Under the pieces are notes generated by a model that saw only the letters and a list, made by a program, of their open reading frames with translations, had not been told where the DNA came from and made no database searches. Made by a program: the position numbers and the translations under genes. Positions 6,757-23,139 of a stretch of DNA of 24,201 nt are shown here, one piece after another (within the stretch, counting starts at the first letter, position 1; the number at the start of each line of letters is the position of its first letter). Origin of the DNA: a virus (taxonomy: Duplodnaviria; Heunggongvirae; Uroviricota; Caudoviricetes); the IMG/VR virus record IMGVR_UViG_2778261666_000010; one strand, given 5' to 3'.

Positions 6757-7557
6757 TTAACCGCGCTTCGCCTTCTGCGTCGCGGTGGTTTTTCGTGTTG
6801 CAGGCTTCCGCGTTGTCTTTTTACTTTTGCTGCTTTCGTCCTGCGCCTGCTGTGCGCTGGCGTCTTCTGGTGCGGCTGCGGAATCGGCTTTTTTCAGGGC
6901 GCGGGAAAGGGTTGCAATCTCGCGTTTCACACCTGCGTTCGGGTTCAGGTGCATCGCTTCGCGCAGCAGCTTCAGTGATGAGGCCATGCTGTCCGCATCG
7001 CTCAGGCCACGGCGGGCAAAGGCGCACGCCTTGCATAATTTGGCGCGCACTTCGTCCGGCATATCCTGGTTGGCGACAATTTCCCAAAGTGTGTCCAGTG
7101 GTTCGATAAAGGCGGACAAATCCGCGTCGGCATCCGTCCCGGCCTGCGTCAGTACCGGGTTGCAGATTTCTTCGGTCAGTACCGTGACAGCAGTACGGCC
7201 AAAGTTATCCGGCATGATGAGGTTGTGACGGACCACATACGCACCAATACGCAATGCCAGCGGAAGATCGCCGCAGTCAATCGCCCACACCATCAGCGTG
7301 GCAATCACTTCATCCTGCTGCCCGCCGTCAGCCTCCAGCGTTCCTTCAATCCAGCCGGAAAAGTCCGGCAACAACTCTTTTTTGATGGCGGCTTTCGCGC
7401 TTCTGGCCTGTACGCCCTTAAGCCGGGCCTGTGCCAGACGCAGACGATACAGCACCTCTTCATGCGCGGTACGCGCGGCGTGGTCCACGCCTTCATTCGC
7501 CCGGCCTGCGCGCTGTGCCATCACGTTCTGCCAGTGTTGCTGTGCAGGAGTAATCAT
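6757..7557 (-). CDS. M: Terminase small (endonuclease) subunit (P2 gpM-like)
   Basis: 266 aa with ...MPDEVRAKL... and a basic K/R-rich C-terminal tail as in P2 M; ATG 7557 with GGAGAG upstream. Confidence 0.8.
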   Translation of the reverse strand: MITPAQQHWQNVMAQRAGRANEGVDHAARTAHEEVLYRLRLAQARLKGVQARSAKAAIKKELLPDFSGWIEGTLEADGGQQDEVIATLMVWAIDCGDLPLALRIGAYVVRHNLIMPDNFGRTAVTVLTEEICNPVLTQAGTDADADLSAFIEPLDTLWEIVANQDMPDEVRAKLCKACAFARRGLSDADSMASSLKLLREAMHLNPNAGVKREIATLSRALKKADSAAAPEDASAQQAQDESSKSKKTTRKPATRKTTATQKAKRG

Positions 7558-7602: not shown

Positions 7603-8655
7603 TTAGCTGTCGGCGAACTTCAGGCCAGTGACCATCGCGCACTTGCCATAGTCTTCAACGACATAAGCGTCATTGATGGACTGGTAGGTGGCGATGCGGT
7701 TGTATTCCGGCTCGTCTTTCATCAGGCGACGCATTGTTCCTTTCTGCCAGTAAATTGACAGGTTGTTGAACGAGGTGATAAGCATCGTTGAATCCGGGAA
7801 GAACGGCGCAAGGAATACATCCAGCCCGCCAATGGCGCGCGATGACAGGATGAGCTGTCCGGCAAGTAATTCCGCATTGGGATTCTGGCCGCTGATGCTG
7901 TTCAGCACGGGCAGACGCAGCGAGTTAAACAGGTTGCGCCCCATAATCACCACGAGGTCGTCAGCTTCCTTGTGCCATTCATCCAGCAGGGATGAGCGCG
8001 CGTCCTGTACCAGAGCATCAGCGTTCGCATACTTACCCGCGTGCGCCACGGTGTTGTCCATGTTGCGGGAGGTCAGCGTCACGTCATTCATTACGCGCTC
8101 GCTGGCGTCGGTTCTGATGTGCTCCAGCCATCCCACGTTAACGTCCTGAAGCAGCTTGTTAGTGCTGAAGTTGGACTCATCTGCGTGAGACGTGCCGTTG
8201 AAACCGATCATGATGCGGTCAAGCGCCACCTGCCGGGCAATCTGTGTGCTGACGCGGGACTGAAAATCAGGGTGTGCCGCCCAGGCATCAAGCTGCGGAT
8301 ACGAAATAAACGTGTCGTAGTTCACCTGTTCGCACTGATATTTGCGGTTTTTCAGATCAACCACGTTATTCGGGTTACGGCGTTTTGTGCCGTCATAACT
8401 GGTATTCGTGCGCGCAATCGGCCCGGTGGTGTCCAGGAGGATTTTTTCGCCTTTCTGGTCGGTCACACCGAACACGTTAATTTTTTTTGTAAATTCGGTG
8501 CTTTCCTTTACTGCGTTTTCAAAACGCTGCTGCACCGAGGGTTCCACGGTAAATCGCGATACCAGTGCAGATACCGGGATGTTGTTAAGCGACGCCTGCT
8601 GCGCCATATAGCAACCCAGCTTGTTGCGGGTAATATCTGACATCACCAGATTCAT
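7603..8655 (-). CDS. N: Major capsid protein (P2 gpN-like)
   Basis: 350 aa; shares ...FTVEPSV... and the overall pattern of P2 N from memory; ATG 8655 with AAGGAG upstream. Confidence 0.9.
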   Translation of the reverse strand: MNLVMSDITRNKLGCYMAQQASLNNIPVSALVSRFTVEPSVQQRFENAVKESTEFTKKINVFGVTDQKGEKILLDTTGPIARTNTSYDGTKRRNPNNVVDLKNRKYQCEQVNYDTFISYPQLDAWAAHPDFQSRVSTQIARQVALDRIMIGFNGTSHADESNFSTNKLLQDVNVGWLEHIRTDASERVMNDVTLTSRNMDNTVAHAGKYANADALVQDARSSLLDEWHKEADDLVVIMGRNLFNSLRLPVLNSISGQNPNAELLAGQLILSSRAIGGLDVFLAPFFPDSTMLITSFNNLSIYWQKGTMRRLMKDEPEYNRIATYQSINDAYVVEDYGKCAMVTGLKFADS

Positions 8656-14160: not shown

Positions 14161-14472
14161 TTATTCAGGAAATAACGCCCTGATATTTCTGGCCATCTGA
14201 CTGGTTATCTGTGCGGTTGGTACTGGCTGTGACTCGGGGCGTTCTGTCCTGGTTTGTGTCACTGATAACGTCTCATCGTCAGCCCATGCAGCCAGTCGGT
14301 AAGCCTCTGCCGGATTCATTTTCAGAAGTGCCAGCCCGGCCAGAAAAGCCACGCGTTGGCCGCTTTTGCGAGCTTCTGGTGTAAGGCTGTCCAGCCAGGC
14401 GCATGCTTCACCTTCGTTCTTGACGGCGGCGGGTTTCAGATAGAAACTTATCCGTCTGGTTGGTGTCGTCAT
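14161..14472 (-). CDS. parR: ParR-like centromere-binding adaptor (partition protein)
   Basis: Start moved to ATG 14472 (MTTPTRRISFYLKPAAVKNEGEACAWLDSLTPEARKSGQRVAFLAGLALLKMNP...), with AAGGAG upstream and overlapping the parM stop. Resembles the N-terminal ribbon-helix-helix region of plasmid R1 ParR (...RTIAFKLNPD...LDSIP...RAALTAGLALY...) from memory. The track's 45-residue N-terminal extension overlaps parM. Confidence 0.65.
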   Translation of the reverse strand: MTTPTRRISFYLKPAAVKNEGEACAWLDSLTPEARKSGQRVAFLAGLALLKMNPAEAYRLAAWADDETLSVTQTRTERPESQPVPTAQITSQMARNIRALFPE

Positions 14473-14476
14473 TGGT

Positions 14477-15436
14477 TTACTCCTTGTCCATTGCGTACAG
14501 CCCATTAACCAGAGCAAACTGTGGCACCCCGTCCGCGATGAAAGTCGCATTAACTCCGCAGGCTTCGCGGATAGCGGGTGCCACAATCTCCGCCCCGCCA
14601 CCGACAACCATCACCCGCCCGTAACCCGAAAAACCCGCCAGCGCGCGGATCACGCGTTGTTTCAGTGTTTCTTCCTTTTCACGAATAACCGCCATCAGGC
14701 TGGCGTAATGCGCGTCATTGTGGATGTGCTGGCGCAGCCAGGCTTCATCATGGCGATGTTCGATAATGGTATTGGCGATGTGGTGACTGGTACGCATACC
14801 GTTAGTGGCCATCACCGACAGTACGGCATCGGCCATCAGGGAAACGCCTACGTGTGGATCGCAAAACACCTGGCTGATACCTGCCAGTTGTCCCTGAACC
14901 TTTGCCACATCCAGCGTGGTTCCGCCCAAATCCACAATCAGCAGGGATTCAAACGGACTCATGTCAGCCAGTGCCTTAAAGCCAGCCGGAATGGATTCAG
15001 GCATAACCCGTACATTACGGATAGTGAATGCCTTACCGTTCTGGTACTCCACCGGGCGCATGACGTTCGCTTTTTTGCGGTTGATGTTGGCCATGTCCGG
15101 CTGTGCGTTTGTGTCGAAATACTCGCTCAGTGGCAGGGTGACAACCACATCCACTTCCTGTGGTGTGATGCCTGATTTGACCAGCGCGTGATGAATGGCA
15201 ATTACATTCACATCGCTGTACTGGTATTGCGTGTCGGTCGTCTGGACAAAGCGATCGCTGACCGGATCAAAACCATAGCGCACGCCATCAAGCATGTAGT
15301 TCGCGGGCTGCATGCCACCGAACGGCGCAGACCATTCCGATTTGAAGCTGTTCGGGCTGATGGCGTTGCGGCGTTCGCCGTTCTCAGTCCATGCCAGCTT
15401 GATGTTGGTGGAGCCGTCGTCGATACAAATTTTCAT
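14477..15436 (-). CDS. parM: ParM/StbA-like actin-type segregation ATPase
   Basis: 319 aa, collinear with plasmid R1 ParM as I recall it (MKICIDDGSTNIKLAW..ISPNSFK..YSDVNV..HHAL..RKKAN..VMPESIPAG..DLGGTTLD..GVSL..GGGAEIV..LVNG), including phosphate-1, phosphate-2 and adenosine motifs of the actin fold. Confidence 0.85.
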   Translation of the reverse strand: MKICIDDGSTNIKLAWTENGERRNAISPNSFKSEWSAPFGGMQPANYMLDGVRYGFDPVSDRFVQTTDTQYQYSDVNVIAIHHALVKSGITPQEVDVVVTLPLSEYFDTNAQPDMANINRKKANVMRPVEYQNGKAFTIRNVRVMPESIPAGFKALADMSPFESLLIVDLGGTTLDVAKVQGQLAGISQVFCDPHVGVSLMADAVLSVMATNGMRTSHHIANTIIEHRHDEAWLRQHIHNDAHYASLMAVIREKEETLKQRVIRALAGFSGYGRVMVVGGGAEIVAPAIREACGVNATFIADGVPQFALVNGLYAMDKE

Positions 15437-15468: not shown

Positions 15469-15580
15469 TTACGGGATTTTTAAATCCCGCTTTTGCCTGT
15501 TTTGTGCGCGCTTCATATTTCGCGGCGCTTTTTTTGCTCATTTACGGGATTTGTGAATCCCGTTTCTGTCTGTTTTTTGT
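15469..15580. repeat. Two ~38-bp direct repeats, each with an internal hairpin and T-rich tail, straddling the gene A stop and the parM upstream region
   Basis: Copy A 15469-15506 (TTACGGGATTTTTAAATCCCGCTTTTGCCTGTTTTGTG) and copy B 15542-15580 (TTACGGGATTTGTGAATCCCGTTTCTGTCTGTTTTTTGT); copy B lies inside the last ~23 codons of gene A. Confidence 0.6.
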
Positions 15581-18335
15581 TCCCACGGGTCAGGCCACCC
15601 CGCAGCAGGTCTGCTTTGCGGTGGGCGCGTTCAGTGGTTTCACTGATTCTCTGTGCGTGCTCTGCGTCACGGATGGCGCGCAGCATGTCAGAAAGCACGG
15701 TAACGGGTGTCTTCATGGTGTTCTGGTCTTGCTGAAGTGTGGATGCCAGGCGTGCGGCGGCTTCGGGGTCTGATGCCCCTAGCTGTTCCAGATAGCTGGC
15801 GACCGGGTTATGGCGGATCTCCGTGCTGCTTACGCCGTGATTACGGCTCAGGCGCTGCCAGAGCTGCGTGATTCGGCTGTCCGGTCGGGTATCTGGTTTG
15901 CGTACAATTTCAAATCCCTGCGGTGCAATGATGCTGCCGTCAACGTACAGACTGCCGCCCCGTAACAGGTGCAGCATCTGTTGTTCACCGATATGCAGGC
16001 CGAGAGATTCGGCAGACTCCCGCCATTCTTTAGCGAGTAACTCGTGGTTATCAGGCAAAGGTCGCGGCTGTTTGCGGCTCTGTGTCCAGTTCTGCATTTC
16101 ATCGCTGCTGTTTTTTGCCTGTTTGTCACGAAGCGAACGCATCAGCGCCCGGCGTTCGTGCCGTTTCAGTGAGCGCATCCATTCATTTACTTCAACGCCG
16201 TCAGGAAGCTGCGGCCACGGTGCTGGCCGTTCTTCCGGCTGTTCTGTTCCGTTGTTGTTCGTTTCCTGTACACGGGGACAGTTATTGCCACGAGTCCAAG
16301 GGGCGGCAGGGCCGCCCTGAAGGTCAAAACCATTTTCGCGGGCGCTGTCTTCCGCTTCCGGTTTACGCCTTACCAGCTTCCAGTTATCCGGGTGCGTGCA
16401 CACGCGGGAAGACTCCCCGATGAGCGGCGACCAGATCCCGTAAATCTGTACACTCTGCTCGCCGTAATCGTTCAGTTCATCTGCGAGGTCGTAGGCGGTG
16501 CGAATCAGGTAGTCTTTACGTGGAACAAGTACGCCGCCCTGTTTTTCAATGTAGGAGGCAAAACACCCGGCATCGGCGGCAGCGAGTACCGCATCCATTG
16601 CGTCATCCTTCAGCCGTTGCGGGCCTTCCGGGTTGCGTGCCATCTGGCTGGCAAGGCGGCGCAGTTCACGCCACACCTGACGGGAGGGGATGCCAAAGAA
16701 CTGGAACTGGCGGACCCGATGAAGGCGCGCCCAGCCGATGGCGCGCTCCACGCTCTCGGCCATTGATTTTCCGGTTTCGTGGTCAACGCGTGGTTTGCCC
16801 GTTTTCGGGTCGATTCCATCCACGGCGCGGCTGTCCAGGTTTTTTCCGATGTAGGTGGCGATGTAGCTGGTTGGCGTGCCTTTGGAGCCGTCGACGTACT
16901 CCACCTTAAAGCGCGGAGTAATATCATTGCCCAGCTCGTGGCGGTCTTCCTGAATGGCAATATCGCGGGTGATGGCCACGATGCTGTCGATTTCTTCTGG
17001 ATGAGCAAAGACCATCATATGCCAGTGCACGGTGCCGTCATGGTGAGGCTCCACCGTGCGGATGCCATACCAGCGCAGGCCGTCGCGGTTCAGTTTCTTG
17101 CGGACCGCCGCAAAAAACGTGTTAACCAGGTAATCGCTGGAGTCGCGCATGGTGGCCCCGTTCCATTTGGGATTCGGATGACCGTTCTCTGTTGTGGCGT
17201 GGTATTTTGACGGGCAGGTGACAGTCAGAAACACCGCTTTGTCGCCACGGGCTTCGGCTAGAAGTTCCAGCCCCTTCATGGTGGCCATCATTTCTGCCTT
17301 ACGGTGAACCGGGTTACTTACTCCCGCGTAATACACTGTCTCAAGATCAATCGTGAAGCCGTCTTCGTTTTCCAGTTCGAAGCTCTTCAGGAAGTCGCGG
17401 GTTTTCTCGCGCTGTGCGCGAAACTCGCTTAACGCGTCCTGGCTCAGATAGGGTGATGTTTTTCTGGAAACCAGACAGGCGGCACGGAGCTGTTCTTCCC
17501 GCCACTCGCAACGTAAAAGCCACAGTTTGTGTTTCCACCATTCCGCACAGGTCAGGCGAAGGATGGCACCCGGCAGCAGCTCCGTATTCAGTGCGTTCTT
17601 CCGGTCTTTGTCCGTTCTCAGTGCTTCGTAATGCGGCGGCATGGTGTGCAGATGTAACGCCATGCGGGCCAGCATCTGATACGCCTTCAGCGCAATTTTC
17701 ATGGTCAGCTCGCCATCGGTCGCGCCAAAGTTATCGCAGAGTGTTTCGAAAGTGCTGCTGAACATCGCCGCCGTCATGGTGGCCAGCGTCTGTATCTGGT
17801 GTTTGTTGAGCTGCGGCAGGTAAAGCAAATCGTCCAGGCGTTCGCGTCCGGCAAGGGAGCAATAACACGGTGTCAGCCAGCGTCCGTCAGTGCGATCCAG
17901 ACGTTCGAATATTTTGCGCAGGGTTCCGCGTGCATAGCGTTCCGCCTGCCAGCTCTTTTTGCCTTTCCGGCGATCGGCTTCCTGTTTTTTGCGCAGGAAG
18001 GAGAGGTGGCGAATAAGCGGATCGCGCAGATAGGACGGCAGCAGGCGGAGCGAGGCCATGGCTTCATCCACCGCGCCGCGTGCCTGTTTTCTGGCGTCTC
18101 CTGTCAGTGTGATGGTTTTGTCCTGTTTTTCCTGTGCGTCCAGGCTTTTATTAATCAGGTTGCCCAGCGGCGTGGCGGAGAACGCCGCATCAGCCATTTC
18201 CTGGCGGCGCTCGTTCTCTGCCCGGTAGGCATCCAGCCAGGAGGAAAGCGCGGATTCAGGAGCGGGGATCCCCGTTCCTTCACGCCCCACTGCGTGGCGC
18301 GGTTGTTGCCAGTCCCTGATGTACTCTGCCGTCAT
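15513..18335 (-). CDS. A: Replication initiation endonuclease (P2 gpA-like, rolling-circle HUH family)
   Basis: 940 aa, ATG 18335; metal-binding motif EPHHDGTVHWHMMVF and downstream tyrosine region (...TSYIATYIGKN...). Longer than the ~761 aa I recall for P2 A. Confidence 0.85.
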   Translation of the reverse strand: MTAEYIRDWQQPRHAVGREGTGIPAPESALSSWLDAYRAENERRQEMADAAFSATPLGNLINKSLDAQEKQDKTITLTGDARKQARGAVDEAMASLRLLPSYLRDPLIRHLSFLRKKQEADRRKGKKSWQAERYARGTLRKIFERLDRTDGRWLTPCYCSLAGRERLDDLLYLPQLNKHQIQTLATMTAAMFSSTFETLCDNFGATDGELTMKIALKAYQMLARMALHLHTMPPHYEALRTDKDRKNALNTELLPGAILRLTCAEWWKHKLWLLRCEWREEQLRAACLVSRKTSPYLSQDALSEFRAQREKTRDFLKSFELENEDGFTIDLETVYYAGVSNPVHRKAEMMATMKGLELLAEARGDKAVFLTVTCPSKYHATTENGHPNPKWNGATMRDSSDYLVNTFFAAVRKKLNRDGLRWYGIRTVEPHHDGTVHWHMMVFAHPEEIDSIVAITRDIAIQEDRHELGNDITPRFKVEYVDGSKGTPTSYIATYIGKNLDSRAVDGIDPKTGKPRVDHETGKSMAESVERAIGWARLHRVRQFQFFGIPSRQVWRELRRLASQMARNPEGPQRLKDDAMDAVLAAADAGCFASYIEKQGGVLVPRKDYLIRTAYDLADELNDYGEQSVQIYGIWSPLIGESSRVCTHPDNWKLVRRKPEAEDSARENGFDLQGGPAAPWTRGNNCPRVQETNNNGTEQPEERPAPWPQLPDGVEVNEWMRSLKRHERRALMRSLRDKQAKNSSDEMQNWTQSRKQPRPLPDNHELLAKEWRESAESLGLHIGEQQMLHLLRGGSLYVDGSIIAPQGFEIVRKPDTRPDSRITQLWQRLSRNHGVSSTEIRHNPVASYLEQLGASDPEAAARLASTLQQDQNTMKTPVTVLSDMLRAIRDAEHAQRISETTERAHRKADLLRGGLTRGNKKQTETGFTNPVNEQKKRREI

Positions 18336-18341
18336 AGTGAT

Positions 18342-18707
18342 TTACTTCGTCATGCCATTCAGGGTGTCGCGGCAGACGGCAGCCAGCCGCTGAATTTCCA
18401 GCACGGTGTCTTCTGTGTCGGCATGGCGATGTGTGATGCGGATGCTGTCGGCAATCACATCGACGATTGCAGAGGATGGGCGCTGGTAAATGCCAATAAC
18501 GGACGGGGTGCCGCCTTCAATGCGGTAAAGCCTGTAATTTCCCTCGTGGCTGTCAATCATGTAGCGACCATCAATAACAATCTTTCCGTCAGCGAGCTGC
18601 GGTACAGGCAGGGATTTCAGGTACATGTCATAACGTTCACGCACGCGAACGGCAAGATCACGCTCTGTGTTGAGCAGGTATTCAAGAAAGTCGTTGGCGA
18701 GAATCAT
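18342..18707 (-). CDS. Hypothetical early protein (121 aa)
   Basis: ATG 18707 with AGAGGA upstream; ends 7 nt before gene A; position of the small P2 orfs preceding A. Confidence 0.55.
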   Translation of the reverse strand: MILANDFLEYLLNTERDLAVRVRERYDMYLKSLPVPQLADGKIVIDGRYMIDSHEGNYRLYRIEGGTPSVIGIYQRPSSAIVDVIADSIRITHRHADTEDTVLEIQRLAAVCRDTLNGMTK

Positions 18708-18779
18708 TGCGGCAATCCTCTTGTTACAGATGTGCGAAGGCCTCCCGCCGCAAGGTGCAGGAAAGGCCCGGAACAGGAA

Positions 18780-19010
18780 TTAATGGAGTTTGTTTTGCTG
18801 CTCGATGAGCTGCTGAAGCTCGCGCAGATCATCCGCCAGATAGCTAAATACTGCGGCGGAGTAGGCGTTTGACAGCACGTGGCTGTGCTCATGTGACATG
18901 TTGATGAACATGATACGAGCGACGCGTGATGCGCGGTAAAGTCTGCGGTTGATTTCAGTCTGGATGTGACGACGCGCAGCGTATGCGCGCTGTTGTTTGC
19001 GGTTTGCCAT
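18780..19010 (-). CDS. Hypothetical early protein (76 aa)
   Basis: ATG 19010 with AGAGG upstream; first gene after the 320-bp structured non-coding region. Confidence 0.5.
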   Translation of the reverse strand: MANRKQQRAYAARRHIQTEINRRLYRASRVARIMFINMSHEHSHVLSNAYSAAVFSYLADDLRELQQLIEQQNKLH

Positions 19011-19188
19011 GGTGTGGCCTCTTTGCTAGTAAGTTTTAAAAACTCACCATCCAGAGGTGGAAAACTCGGGGTGGTGAGACGTACAGGGTTTCCACAACCG
19101 GCTAGCAAAGAACCCGGCCCGACCGAAGTCGGCCCCATACGCCCCACCATAATTCGTGTGCGAAAAAGACGTGGCGATACGGTACGCA

Positions 19189-19210
19189 CAAAAAAACCGC
19201 TGGCGCGGTT
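19189..19210 (-). terminator. Candidate intrinsic terminator (minus strand) inside the early region
   Basis: Minus-strand RNA would read AACCGC-GCCA-GCGGUU followed by UUUUUU; short GC stem, moderate strength. Confidence 0.4.
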
Positions 19211-19330
19211 GTGCGCTTTGCTAGTCAGCGGGGTGGAAATCCCGGCACCCGTTTTATGAGGTGCAGCGGAAATGTAACCTGACTGATTGCGGCATGGCAA
19301 GCGGTTTTTTTGTGTGTGCATGATGATTAC

Positions 19331-19882
19331 TCAGTTTGGTAATAGCTCGTACAGCACGGCGTCGGCGGCGGTTCGGCGGTTGTAAAGCCACCATACTGTG
19401 CTGTATGCCACCTGTATCCCTGTGATTTTGTGTATATGTCTGCTTATTTCCCTGAATGGCATGCCGTGCCCATCACGCAATTCAGTTACCAGATGAACAA
19501 TATGATCGTCGTATTTAGCAGCATGATGTATGCCTCCACACTTCATTGCGCTGTAACCACGATCGCGGAGTATTTTTTGTATGGTGCATTTGCTACATTT
19601 CATTTCCCGCGCCATATCCCTCTTACTTTTTCGGTGGCGGTTGCTGATTATTTCTGCTATTGCCTTTTCATCCAGCCGCTGGCGTTTCCGCCCAATCAGC
19701 CCTCGCTTGCGCAAGGTGATAAGGCGCTGCCCCGTTGCATGAAATGAGCGATTAAGTCTGGATGTCATTTCCCTGATGCTGTGTTTCGGGTACATGCTTA
19801 TCAGCAACGCATCTTCCTGTTTCGTCCATTGTTTAACGTGTCTTGGTGCCCGACCGGGGATGCCCATGGGTTTGAGTTTCAT
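19331..19882 (-). CDS. Putative DNA-binding protein with two HTH-like segments (183 aa)
   Basis: ATG 19882; segments KQWTKQEDALLISMY... and ...RDMAREMKCSKCTIQKILRDRG... look like helix-turn-helix/homeodomain-like modules; no transposase catalytic motif seen. Confidence 0.55.
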   Translation of the reverse strand: MKLKPMGIPGRAPRHVKQWTKQEDALLISMYPKHSIREMTSRLNRSFHATGQRLITLRKRGLIGRKRQRLDEKAIAEIISNRHRKSKRDMAREMKCSKCTIQKILRDRGYSAMKCGGIHHAAKYDDHIVHLVTELRDGHGMPFREISRHIHKITGIQVAYSTVWWLYNRRTAADAVLYELLPN

Positions 19883-20099
19883 TGTGATTTGCTCCCCTAC
19901 TGGTTAAGGAAAAAAAATCAAAAACGTTATTGATGCGTTGTGATAACTCGCGCTGTATTGCTTCCAGTGTTTCCGGTTCGCCAGGCGACCCCAGCGTTGC
20001 GCAGAAATCAGCGATCTCGCGTTGAATGAGTTCTTTCAGCGTCGGTAAGGAATTCATGTGTGTGCGGCGATGCCTGCGTGTGATTCGCCTTCTGCTCAT
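19833..20099 (-). CDS. Hypothetical protein (88 aa; start uncertain)
   Basis: ATG 20099 overlaps the upstream stop (ATGA); an alternative ATG is at 20057; the 3' end overlaps the 183-aa gene by ~50 nt. Confidence 0.4.
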   Translation of the reverse strand: MSRRRITRRHRRTHMNSLPTLKELIQREIADFCATLGSPGEPETLEAIQRELSQRINNVFDFFSLTSRGANHNETQTHGHPRSGTKTR

Positions 20100-20299
20100 T
20101 TACGATGCTCCTGTACCTGTCGGATAAGGTTTACCCGCGCCACATTAGTGGCGCAGAAGTAAGTGCCGTCAGTGAGGTAGATGTGGTGTGCATCCTTTTC
20201 CGAACGATGTTTGTCGATAGTGGTAATCAGGCGTTCATCGACCTCGTATTCGCGCCCTCTGGAGGTAAAGCGAACGACGGGAAAATGCTTAATTGCCAT
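20096..20299 (-). CDS. Hypothetical protein (67 aa)
   Basis: Track start 20320 is TTG; ATG 20299 (MAIKHFPVVRF...) has AAGGGGG upstream. Confidence 0.5.
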   Translation of the reverse strand: MAIKHFPVVRFTSRGREYEVDERLITTIDKHRSEKDAHHIYLTDGTYFCATNVARVNLIRQVQEHRK

Positions 20300-20322
20300 T
20301 GCGCCCCCTTTGTCCAGCAACC

Positions 20323-20739
20323 CTATGCGTTAAATACGGCACGTTGCGCGTCATCAATGAATACAGCTTGAGAGCGTTCTATCAGGCGGAGATTCGTCAG
20401 AAGCTCTGACTCTTTTGTGTGGTAAGGCGTTATCAGGTATTTGCCGTGCAGTTCGGAAATAATGGTGTATCGCATCATCATTGCCGAACCAAGAATGTAA
20501 ATGCTGCGTCCAATGATGGACGGATTCATGGCTGCAACTGTTGACTGTGTTTTAAGAGTGTCGATTTCTTTGCTCTGTTCCTCAATGATTTTAGCTGCGT
20601 CAGCGGTGATTTTTGCAATGGTCAGTGCGTGAAGTGCTGCCATGTGTTGGCTATGCTTCATGGCATCTTTAGCCATTTGGTCTTCCGCTTCAGATATTTT
20701 TTTTAATGTGTCGATGATGCCTTCTTCTTTTGCGTTCAT
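20323..20739 (-). CDS. Hypothetical protein (138 aa), helical N-terminus
   Basis: Start moved to ATG 20739 (MNAKEEGIIDTLKK...) with GGAG upstream; the track's N-terminal extension is arginine-rich and lacks an SD. Confidence 0.5.
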   Translation of the reverse strand: MNAKEEGIIDTLKKISEAEDQMAKDAMKHSQHMAALHALTIAKITADAAKIIEEQSKEIDTLKTQSTVAAMNPSIIGRSIYILGSAMMMRYTIISELHGKYLITPYHTKESELLTNLRLIERSQAVFIDDAQRAVFNA

Positions 20740-21954: not shown

Positions 21955-22296
21955 CTACCCGATAAGCCAAATAACAAACGCTATGAGCACCGCGCCAATA
22001 GTGGTCGGGAAAAGACCTCTGGTATAGGCGGCGAGGTAATGAACGTTGAGAACAATAAAGCGCTCTTTTTGTCCTGTTAGCTTGTTAAGCAGATAAATCG
22101 CTATTACACCCACTTCCAGGAATACAAGGTTCAGAATGGCGCTGATGATATTGCTGGTTATTTTTGTGTGTTTAGTTGCCTTCGCTGCTTTTGAGTCGCT
22201 CCAGCTTTGAACTTCTGCCTGTATAAACTCGCTTACCGTTAATGGTCTGGCAGTCTTCTTTATTAGCTGGAAAGAACTTTCTTTTCTGGCGGTCAT
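21955..22296 (-). CDS. Possible overprinted two-helix membrane protein (low confidence)
   Basis: Alternative frame overlapping the 3' end of the Cox-like gene; the C-terminal 70 aa are strongly hydrophobic (ITSNIISAILNLVFLEVGVIAIYLL... LFPTTIGAVLIAFVIWLIG); the only in-frame ATG is at 22296, with a weak SD. Confidence 0.25.
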   Translation of the reverse strand: MTARKESSFQLIKKTARPLTVSEFIQAEVQSWSDSKAAKATKHTKITSNIISAILNLVFLEVGVIAIYLLNKLTGQKERFIVLNVHYLAAYTRGLFPTTIGAVLIAFVIWLIG

Positions 22297-22693
22297 ACGT
22301 CCAGTAACTTTTCCAGTTGTGCCATTCTGGTGGCTCAAGTTCCGGTAGCTCGTCAGCCAGTGCGTCCCACTCTTTGGCGTTAAACCACCATACTCCGTCT
22401 GAGTTTTCATCTTCCGGGTTTGTGCGCGTCTTGTGTCCCGGCATTTGACCGCGATGAATGGCTACGCGCAGTGCAGATTTTGTTAGCCCAATATATGCCG
22501 CGCCTTTTTCCAGAGAGCAAAGCCCGGCGATCGGACCATCCAGCCGTAAAGTCGCTCCTTTTTTGTAGGAACGCTTTTTCTTGTTTTCTTCGTGTTCGTC
22601 GTCGTTGGCGGCATCAATGGATCCGCTGAGTGCGTCACTTTCCTGAAGTGGTTGGTGGTCAGATAACTCTTTATCGGCAATGAAGTCCCGCAT
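22172..22693 (-). CDS. Cox/Apl/Cro-position HTH regulator, first gene of the early operon (173 aa)
   Basis: ATG 22693 with AAGAGGA upstream; divergent from the repressor; acidic N-terminus then an HTH-like segment (AAYIGLTKSALRVAIHRGQMPG) and a Trp-rich region. Much longer than P2 Cox (91 aa from memory). Confidence 0.6.
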   Translation of the reverse strand: MRDFIADKELSDHQPLQESDALSGSIDAANDDEHEENKKKRSYKKGATLRLDGPIAGLCSLEKGAAYIGLTKSALRVAIHRGQMPGHKTRTNPEDENSDGVWWFNAKEWDALADELPELEPPEWHNWKSYWTYDRQKRKFFPANKEDCQTINGKRVYTGRSSKLERLKSSEGN

Positions 22694-22752
22694 TTGTTAT
22701 CCTCTTGCGTTGGTGCGCTTGTCGCGCCTTGTGATGGTTTGTTTTGGCTTGT

Positions 22753-22808
22753 AAAGATAATCAAACGGTTATCTTTGTGCGAGAGGTTAATACTCAAATG
22801 GTTATCTT
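22753..22808. promoter_or_regulatory. Candidate operator elements of the immunity switch
   Basis: Perfect inverted repeat AAAGATAA-N8-TTATCTTT (22753-22776), plus a 9-bp direct repeat GGTTATCTT at 22767 and 22800 (33 bp apart), the second overlapping the repressor start codon. Confidence 0.45.
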
Positions 22809-23139
22809 GTCAATAGACTATGCAAAAAAGTTACGTCAGATACGTAAGGCGGAAGGGTTAACACAAAAGCAGTTTGCGGATATTACTGGGTTGTCTTTGG
22901 CAACCATAAGGAATTACGAATCGGGGCAAAAGAACGCTAGAGCAAAAATCGTTGAGGCGGTTCTGCAAGTCGATCGCTTTGAAAAATACATGCTGTGGCT
23001 AATAAAAGATAAGACGCTACCTGTCGCCGGGCAGATTGCTCCGGCTCTCTCTCTTGATGGATCTATTCAGTCGGAGGGCGATCAGGTTTCAATCGGTATT
23101 ACCCAAAAATCACCCCGATCAGGCCGCAATGTTGGCTGA
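22798..23139 (+). CDS. Immunity repressor (P2 C / lambda CI-type, HTH_XRE)
   Basis: Start placed at ATG 22798 (MVILSIDYAKKLRQIRKAEGLTQKQFADITGLSLATIRNYESGQ...), a classic XRE HTH; upstream of and co-oriented with int, as in P2 C-int. The track's earlier start 22744 remains possible. Confidence 0.7.
   Translation: MVILSIDYAKKLRQIRKAEGLTQKQFADITGLSLATIRNYESGQKNARAKIVEAVLQVDRFEKYMLWLIKDKTLPVAGQIAPALSLDGSIQSEGDQVSIGITQKSPRSGRNVG

Follow-up and report, generated by a model that had tools for sequence, protein, structure and literature searches.

Analysis of a 24,201-nucleotide (nt) stretch of caudoviricete DNA (IMG/VR record IMGVR_UViG_2778261666_000010; hereafter the window, numbered from its first letter) revealed that the 320-bp gap at 19011-19330 in the minus-strand early operon is not empty but is occupied by a minus-strand IsrK-C4 RNA cassette. 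The interval is very probably an antisense control cassette of the kind found in the immI region of phages P1 and P7 and in the immunity region of satellite P4, placed here before an epsilon-like anti-repressor gene in a P2-like phage of the P88/Xuanwuvirus type. The cassette is full and apparently intact. Its anatomy and its co-varying complementarities are seen directly in the sequence and in the comparison with related loci. The cassette is a previously unannotated instance of a known RNA switch family; this study adds an explanation of the repeats in the gap, a correction of the 'Ash' annotation and an antiterminator hypothesis.

The gap had been described earlier from the letters alone. 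That description, the sequence-only reading, proposed a structured non-coding insert and offered three options: a terminator plus a new promoter with operator repeats, a small RNA, or a recombination site. A covariance search, which it had suggested as a check, was run with Rfam over the whole window at curated thresholds and gave exactly two matches, both full length, both in the gap and both on the minus strand. The first match (19190-19264) is a 75-nt leader RNA of the IsrK/seqA type (RF01394 isrK, 63.8 bits, gathering threshold 50). The second (19067-19154) is an antisense RNA of the C4/CI type (RF01695 C4, 78.8 bits, gathering threshold 45, model positions 1-87 of 87). The small-RNA option is borne out by two curated families, with two RNAs present instead of one. 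A terminator and a promoter-like site are present as well; the operator repeats and the recombination site did not stand. At a relaxed threshold the other Rfam families gave chance-level matches only in the window (E above 3), and no tRNA or tmRNA was found in it.

Repeats and RNA elements of the interval

Exactly three copies of the 9-mer CTTTGCTAG are present in the 24.2-kb window, all inside 204 nt: at 19021-19029 and 19216-19224 on the plus strand and, inverted, at 19102-19110 on the minus strand. Chance expectation is 0.11 copies (mean of dinucleotide-preserving shuffles), and none of 100 shuffles gave three. The sequence-only reading had the three copies right, with two of the starts off by one. 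It overlooked a second triplet, formed by TTTCCAC at 19057-19063 and 19233-19239 on the minus strand and its complement at 19089-19095. Read on the minus strand, the direct copies of CTTTGCTAG become CUAGCAAAG and are exactly complementary to the hairpin-2 loop of C4.

The cassette begins with a predicted sigma-70-like promoter on the minus strand (19271-19300), consisting of a -35 hexamer TTGCCA (19300-19295), an 18-nt spacer and a -10 hexamer TACATT (19276-19271), with a predicted start near 19264. This site, also overlooked by the sequence-only reading, is the only promoter-like site detected in 18600-20400. It lies directly 5' of the start of the isrK match, and equivalent hexamers are found 5' of the leader in relatives and in P4. 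The leader consists of hairpin 1, hairpin 2 with the element a1 (UUUCCAC, 19233-19239, minus) in its loop, the single-stranded element b1 (CUAGCAAAG, 19216-19224, minus) and, just 3' of b1, an intrinsic terminator (19190-19210, minus; AACCGC-GCCA-GCGGUU followed by a U7 tract). Element a1 is the complement of the C4 element a', and b1, one of the CTTTGCTAG copies, is the complement of the C4 loop b'. The terminator had been recognised before; it was recovered by the terminator scan (stem 19210-19195, U-tract 19196-19190) and coincides with the 3' hairpin of the isrK model at the end of the match. On the plus strand no adequate hairpin for a terminator was present at 19284-19311, and the terminator scan found none there.

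A spacer of 35 nt separates the leader from C4. The mature C4 is predicted to span 19148-19070 (79 nt), its ends being set by alignment to the 77-nt c4 of P1 as annotated in the GenBank record; the sequence around the ends of mature P1 c4 (AUUAU/GG...CCACC/, slashes marking the ends) is conserved in the C4 of the window. Hairpin 1 of C4 (19119-19132, minus; CCGAC-UUCG-GUCGG) follows from the C4 alignment, with compensatory changes at four of its five pairs. The sequence-only reading had listed this small hairpin at about 19115-19128 with a GNRA-like loop; the hairpin exists, its position is shifted, and the minus-strand loop is a UUCG tetraloop. The loop of hairpin 2 is b' (CUUUGCUAG, 19102-19110, minus), which is the inverted copy of CTTTGCTAG and the recognition element for b1 and b2. 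The second recognition element, a' (GUGGAAA, 19089-19095, minus), is part of the unpaired segment that follows hairpin 2 on its 3' side.

The two downstream targets are found between C4 and the first gene. Element a2 (UUUCCAC, 19057-19063, minus) is located 7 nt past the predicted 3' end of C4, in the loop of an inverted repeat (19078-19065 and 19056-19043) that the sequence-only reading had also noted and that the repeat search recovered. Element b2 (CUAGCAAAGA, 19020-19029, minus), the remaining CTTTGCTAG copy, overlaps the Shine-Dalgarno sequence GAGG (19021-19018), 7 nt before the AUG at 19010. In addition, the region of this start codon (GCCACACCAU, 19009-19018) is complementary at nine of ten positions to the 5' strand of the closing stem of C4 (AUGGUGGGGC, 19141-19150), a possible extra pairing in the unprocessed RNA.

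Co-variation of recognition sequences among related loci

Viral contigs were searched with a pattern of the conserved C4 core, which yielded 120 loci with 65 distinct C4 variants; these were reduced to 47 (b',a') specificity classes comprising 34 b' and 24 a' variants. For each class a complement of at least 7 nt was looked for in the locus's own flanks, and the result was compared with that for mismatched pairs of loci. Element b1 co-varies with b' in 79% of classes (6.5% in mismatched pairs) and b2 in 85% (3.4%); a1 co-varies with a' in 98% (8%) and a2 in 100% (3.5%). Exact complements of 7-10 nt to the hairpin-2 loop and to the 3' single strand occur at fixed offsets up- and downstream in nearly all loci. 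RNAduplex of the whole C4 against its targets was uninformative, as the structure of C4 itself gets unfolded.

The same organisation accompanies these complementarities. Among the 47 class representatives, nearly all carry the leader directly upstream of C4, on the same strand and behind a promoter-like site, and nearly all have a terminator with a U-run 3' of b1. In the 81 distinct first open reading frames (ORFs), b2 abuts or overlaps the Shine-Dalgarno sequence without exception, ending 2-14 nt (7-11 nt in nearly all) before the start codon. The fold of C4, a long closing stem around two hairpins, has 26 predicted pairs, of which 15 show double compensatory changes among 63 sequences including P1 c4 and P4 CI; in leader hairpins 1 and 2, compensatory changes were found at eight of nine predicted pairs (38 sequences, P4 included).

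These data bear directly on the proposal that the repeats are protein operators or the core of a site-specific recombination site, which we regard as extremely improbable. The presence of direct and inverted 9-mer copies near a promoter is all that speaks for it. One of the copies sits in a conserved RNA hairpin loop, to which the other two are complementary within the same transcript; two of the three lie 50-240 nt downstream of the promoter, and no recombinase gene is adjacent. Moreover, all three copies change together between phages while complementarity is kept, as expected for RNA-RNA pairing. The repeats are instead an antisense-RNA recognition loop and its two RNA target sites, co-varying across dozens of cassettes.

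Analysis of the classes also showed that a' and b' are exchanged freely. Ten b' loops are paired with two or three different a' elements (loci L003-L122), and the b' of the window occurs with another a' in locus L026. This mixing suggests a combinatorial specificity, or immunity, code common to P2-like phages, P4-like satellites and lambdoid phages, and such a code bears on helper-satellite cross-talk. One viral contig (L053) contains two complete cassettes (7044-7068 and 7913-7937) separated by about 870 nt; their b' and a' elements differ, and each stands before a Rha-type gene.

Comparison with P1 was made on a GenBank record that annotates the promoters, a1, b1, the 77-nt c4, a2, b2 and icd. 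The immI region of P1 (c4, icd, ant1/2) has the same order of a1, b1, c4, a2, b2 and start codon as the window, and the spacings are close: 14 nt in P1 and 15 nt in the window from a1 to b1, 74 and 76 nt from b1 to the 5' end of C4, 29 and 34 nt from a2 to b2, and 18 and 19 nt from b2 to the AUG. P1 c4 aligns with the C4 of the window in the same fold, and relief of repression is the regulated function in P1 and the predicted one in the window. The two differ in that the leader promoter of P1 carries a C1 operator, for which no equivalent is evident in the window, in their recognition sequences, and in the regulated genes: icd is the first in P1, followed by ant, whereas the first protein in the window is unlike Icd.

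Proposed control of the epsilon-like gene

The first gene after C4 (18780-19010, minus) encodes a 76-amino-acid (aa) homologue of the P4 epsilon helper-derepression (anti-repressor) protein. It matches PF25738 Derepression with 33.2 bits (cut-off 27), a model on which P4 epsilon reaches 170 bits, and shares 32% identity with P4 epsilon over 66 aa (E = 5e-8). Its candidacy as an Icd homologue was rejected, as no similarity to P1 Icd was found. Variable sites in the epsilon-like gene of 22 distinct epsilon-type cassettes fall at codon positions 1, 2 and 3 in the numbers 44/36/65, and this third-position excess confirms that the frame is coding. Elsewhere the cassettes are followed first by a Rha-like gene, one with the P22-Ant N-terminal domain or an Icd-like one, and several of these families have anti-repressor or regulatory roles.

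The cassette lies inside the early operon, with replication gene A (15513-18335) downstream in the same orientation, and the surrounding element is P2-like, with C and Cox homologues at about 22172-23139, C being the product of 22744-23139, and a 940-aa gpA. Based on the characterised relatives, we propose that transcription would start near 19264 and mostly stop at the leader terminator. Transcripts that read through would be cut by RNase P and trimmed at the 3' end, giving a C4 of about 79 nt. C4 would then pair with a2 and b2 on the messenger and occlude the Shine-Dalgarno sequence, so that no anti-repressor is made in the quiescent prophage; the untranslated messenger might be terminated by Rho, as in P1, which would lower expression of the 121-aa gene and of gene A. 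Copies of a1 and b1 in the plentiful short leader, and in each newly made transcript, would compete for C4 as a sink. If leader or early-operon transcription rose, C4 could in this way be titrated, the anti-repressor translated, the C repressor inactivated and induction locked in. The translational block is ranked first because b2 sits on the Shine-Dalgarno sequence in every cassette.

Several reports deal with related RNAs. CI and C4 are RNase P substrates (PMC5499578). Salmonella IsrK binds Hfq and accumulates as a stable short RNA (PMC2330248, PMC4825925); it is a structural homologue of P4 seqA with a processed RNA downstream, and it activates an anti-repressor (PMC4825925). The isrK and C4 RNAs have been noted together in APSE phages (PMC7313666).

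Five points weigh against the proposed mechanism. No separate C4 promoter was found by the promoter scan in the 35-nt spacer, and C4 would therefore come only from transcripts that get past an apparently good terminator. Promoter activity, processing sites and repression are predictions throughout, and so is the anti-repressor role of the 76-aa protein, which is deduced from its 32% identity to P4 epsilon. The read-outs of P1, P4 and Gifsy-1 partly differ, and which of them dominates here is not readable from the sequence. Finally, the window contains a single LexA box (CTGT-N8-ACAG), at 16266, and none close to the cassette that could serve as a trigger.

The P4 read-out was considered first among these. 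Both Rfam families match P4 in the same order and orientation as in the window, and P4 shares the design of a1/b1, C4, a2/b2 and Shine-Dalgarno sequence, an epsilon homologue downstream and promoter-like hexamers at the equivalent position. Its order is PLE, seqA leader, CI RNA, seqC, kil/eta and epsilon. By analogy, C4 bound to nascent a1/b1 and a2/b2 would mainly cause premature transcription termination, silencing gene A and other downstream genes in the lysogen, with control of epsilon-like translation secondary. The summaries in PMC4825925 and PMC3632133 describe pairing of CI with seqA and seqC as leading to termination, P4 has the two RNAs upstream of both epsilon and a replication gene, and gene A in the window is downstream in the same orientation. 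Set against this, b2 lies on the Shine-Dalgarno sequence here and in every relative examined, as a translational block needs; a Rho-dependent site is not readable from the sequence; and the nested kil/eta, termination modulators in P4, are absent, the epsilon-like gene following C4 directly. We rate predominant termination as a substantial but minority possibility; it overlaps with the mechanism proposed above and does not exclude it.

Further differences separate the window from P4. The spacing from leader to CI is 107 nt in P4 against 35 nt in the window, and an Icd-like kil lies between CI and epsilon. The P4 recognition sequences (b' CCUGUGAA, a' UUCUCAC) are unlike those of the window. 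P4 is a satellite with an alpha primase, whereas the window belongs to a P2-like phage with C/Cox, gpA and morphogenesis genes. Two marks of the P4-like satellite immunity region as an element are lacking: no kil/eta follows C4, and the replication gene encodes, in place of an alpha primase-helicase, a 940-aa endonuclease of the P2 gpA type (PF05840). The 121-aa protein downstream of the epsilon-like gene has no significant similarity to P4 ORF151 or ORF106, so that only the RNA cassette and epsilon are common to the window and P4. The cassette is P4-like; the element itself is a P2-like phage.

Another read-out is known from the lambdoid prophage Gifsy-1 (isrK, orf45 (STnc1160), anrP), after whose IsrK small RNA the Rfam family is named and whose family model the leader of the window matches over its full length. 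Like the mechanism favoured here, Gifsy-1 involves terminator read-through into a longer RNA, a processed RNA downstream and an anti-repressor output that induces the prophage; its anti-repressor is unrelated to that of the window. The published Gifsy-1 mechanism is activation by the short RNA together with translation of 'orf45'. Applied to the window, the long messenger would fold a1/b1 onto a'/b' in cis and close the ribosome-binding site, and the short IsrK-like RNA would open it in trans, making the leader the effector of an activator switch. The minimum-free-energy fold of the full 285-nt transcript does pair the a1/b1 region of the leader with the b'/a' region of C4 in cis, matching 'structure A' in PMC4825925, and the full-length isrK match fits as well. 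This activator switch is nevertheless less likely than not, since its model has the C4 region translated as 'orf45', a frame of 45 codons, while the equivalent frame here runs for 148 codons and passes out of frame through the epsilon-like gene; the isrK/C4 region lacks a coding signature; and the genetics of P1 and P4, as summarised in PMC3632133, make the C4-type RNA the repressor.

Sequence comparison also brought out a candidate antiterminator, which concerns the question of how transcripts pass the leader terminator. The upstream element ACACACAAAAAAACCGCUUGC (19297-19317, minus) is complementary at 19 of 21 positions to 19204-19184, that is, to the 3' arm of the terminator and its U-tract. 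It overlaps the -35 hexamer and an A-tract, and because of this overlap it is absent from transcripts of the cassette promoter. When the upstream RNA was included in RNAfold, the terminator was lost from the minimum-free-energy structure (-52.9 kcal/mol, against -44.3 kcal/mol with the terminator enforced), whereas transcripts from 19264 retained it. The upstream RNA is predicted to disrupt the terminator in all 26 rows of this leader/terminator type, by 5-11 kcal/mol, 24 of these rows being among 29 distinct sequences, where 22 have an epsilon-like gene downstream. In other cassette types such disruption was found only in a minority.

The upstream element is kept whatever gene lies upstream and is conserved in all epsilon-type cassettes. 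It is nearly invariant, so that there is no covariation by which the pairing could be tested; in loci L026 and L080 its A-run is two bases shorter without a compensating change. We tentatively suggest a promoter-of-origin switch, in which the upstream element would disable the terminator only in early-operon transcripts and let them read through to C4, the anti-repressor and gene A, while transcripts from the cassette promoter would mostly stop as the 75-nt leader. A read-through device for early-operon transcripts would make sense because gene A lies downstream of the terminator. If true, the switch would explain how an essential operon of a P2-like phage can accommodate, in its middle, an RNA immunity cassette whose intrinsic terminator is strong.

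The 'Ash family' annotation and the spread of the cassette

The gap is also crossed by reading frames. The sequence-only reading had found no plausible ORF in it; mechanical ORFs of 205 aa on the minus strand and 97 aa on the plus strand do run through, and the substitution patterns carry no coding signal. The 205-aa ORF (18704-19321, minus) matches PF10554 Phage_ASH with 28.2 bits (cut-off 26) and several PHROG 'transcriptional regulator/repressor' families (E = 1e-18). An 'ash family protein' pseudogene is annotated by RefSeq over the same interval in E. coli cq9, so that relatives do bear a protein annotation here, a finding that the sequence-only reading had named in advance as counting against a non-coding element; codon-position analysis lends the protein no support. 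Furthermore, most relatives keep open the frame that begins with the AUG at the C4 5' end. These matches could mean that the interval encodes an 'Ash family' protein, or is the pseudogene remnant of one, with the repeats incidental.

The variable sites speak otherwise. In the 22 distinct epsilon-type cassettes no three-base periodicity was found in the Ash frame, with counts of 6/9/8 in isrK and 8/9/6 in C4, and the variable sites of this region cluster in a1, b1, b', a', a2 and b2. Within the overlapping epsilon-like gene the excess at Ash-frame position 2 (36/65/44) is simply the third codon position of epsilon. The length of C4 varies by single nucleotides (79-85 nt), and changes in its stems are compensatory. 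In P4 the 107 positions of the model correspond to translation of isrK, the spacer, C4 (CI) and b2, and the summaries in PMC3632133 and PMC4825925 attribute P4 immunity to the CI RNA. Synonymous shuffles keep the alternate frame open in 6-76% of trials; its openness is therefore weak evidence, and selection for an open alternate frame over the epsilon-like gene was judged unconvincing. By the same shuffles the openness of the frame from the C4 AUG is only weakly unusual. We regard a protein or pseudogene origin of the interval as very unlikely; most likely, the Ash ORF arises from conceptually translating the RNA cassette and is not a protein gene here.

PF10554 and PHROGs 995, 6928 and 821 match the translation of the cassette not only in the window (18704-19321, minus) but also in loci L123 (8168-8821, minus) and L126 (638-931). 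The C-terminus of the old P4 'cI' ORF is the Icd-like kil gene read in frame. Phage_ASH and the matching PHROG protein families probably describe an RNA locus, and the model, together with the 'ash family protein' labels that it probably underlies, needs to be revisited.

The frame that starts at the C4 AUG (19150-18704, minus) has about 148 codons, and it ends in an ATGA on the start of the 121-aa gene (18707). Cassettes of the Rha and P4/Icd types have this AUG in frame with the gene that follows, which recalls the translated 'orf45' of Gifsy-1. The plus-strand 97-aa ORF (18966-19259) and a 46-aa ORF had no family matches. The 97-aa ORF has a counterpart in the P88 record, a 62-aa hypothetical protein (AIZ95121.1) opposite C4 (L001 5072-5260, plus), which is probably a spurious call over an RNA gene.

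The closest sequences are those of Xuanwuvirus P88, Citrobacter phage Shae_phiSM and relatives, with 88-95% identity across the whole cassette and the same downstream genes. Both Rfam families match P88 and Shae_phiSM at the same place as in the window; the gene upstream of the cassette in P88 differs from that of the window. Their recognition sequences differ as well (b' CUGUAGUUG in P88; b' CUUUGGUUG and a' GUUCCAA in Shae_phiSM), and on these differences in b' and/or a' both phages are probably hetero-specific to the window. No RNA was annotated at this locus in the Xuanwuvirus records or in the RefSeq E. coli records inspected.

Similar DNA is widespread. A 1.2-kb query (18700-19900) comprising the cassette and both flanking genes found similarity, at least in part, in about 1,284 of 5,426 complete E. 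coli genomes, and the cassette interval itself is matched by 170 phage records. The best E. coli match to 18700-19900 is 94% identical, and the best phage match, Shae_phiSM, is 93% identical over the cassette. By these values the window probably stems from a prophage of a related enterobacterium and not from an E. coli genome already completely sequenced. The present assignment gives a specific meaning to a gap that recurs widely and is unannotated or wrongly annotated. Classical P2 is non-inducible, and an RNA-gated epsilon-like anti-repressor would be a possible route by which prophages of the P88 type, though P2-like, are switched on. P88 was obtained after mitomycin C treatment, and Shae_phiSM is described as spontaneously active (PMC5285337, PMC6456863).

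Two observations concern the genes further downstream. In gpA (15513-18335, minus), PF05840 covers residues 179-503 only of the 940 aa, leaving long N- and C-terminal extensions. Just downstream of gene A, as in P88 and Shae_phiSM, two genes (14161-15436, minus) match PHROG 'partition protein' families; their counterparts in Shae_phiSM are annotated as parM and parP, which hints at an option of plasmid-like maintenance.

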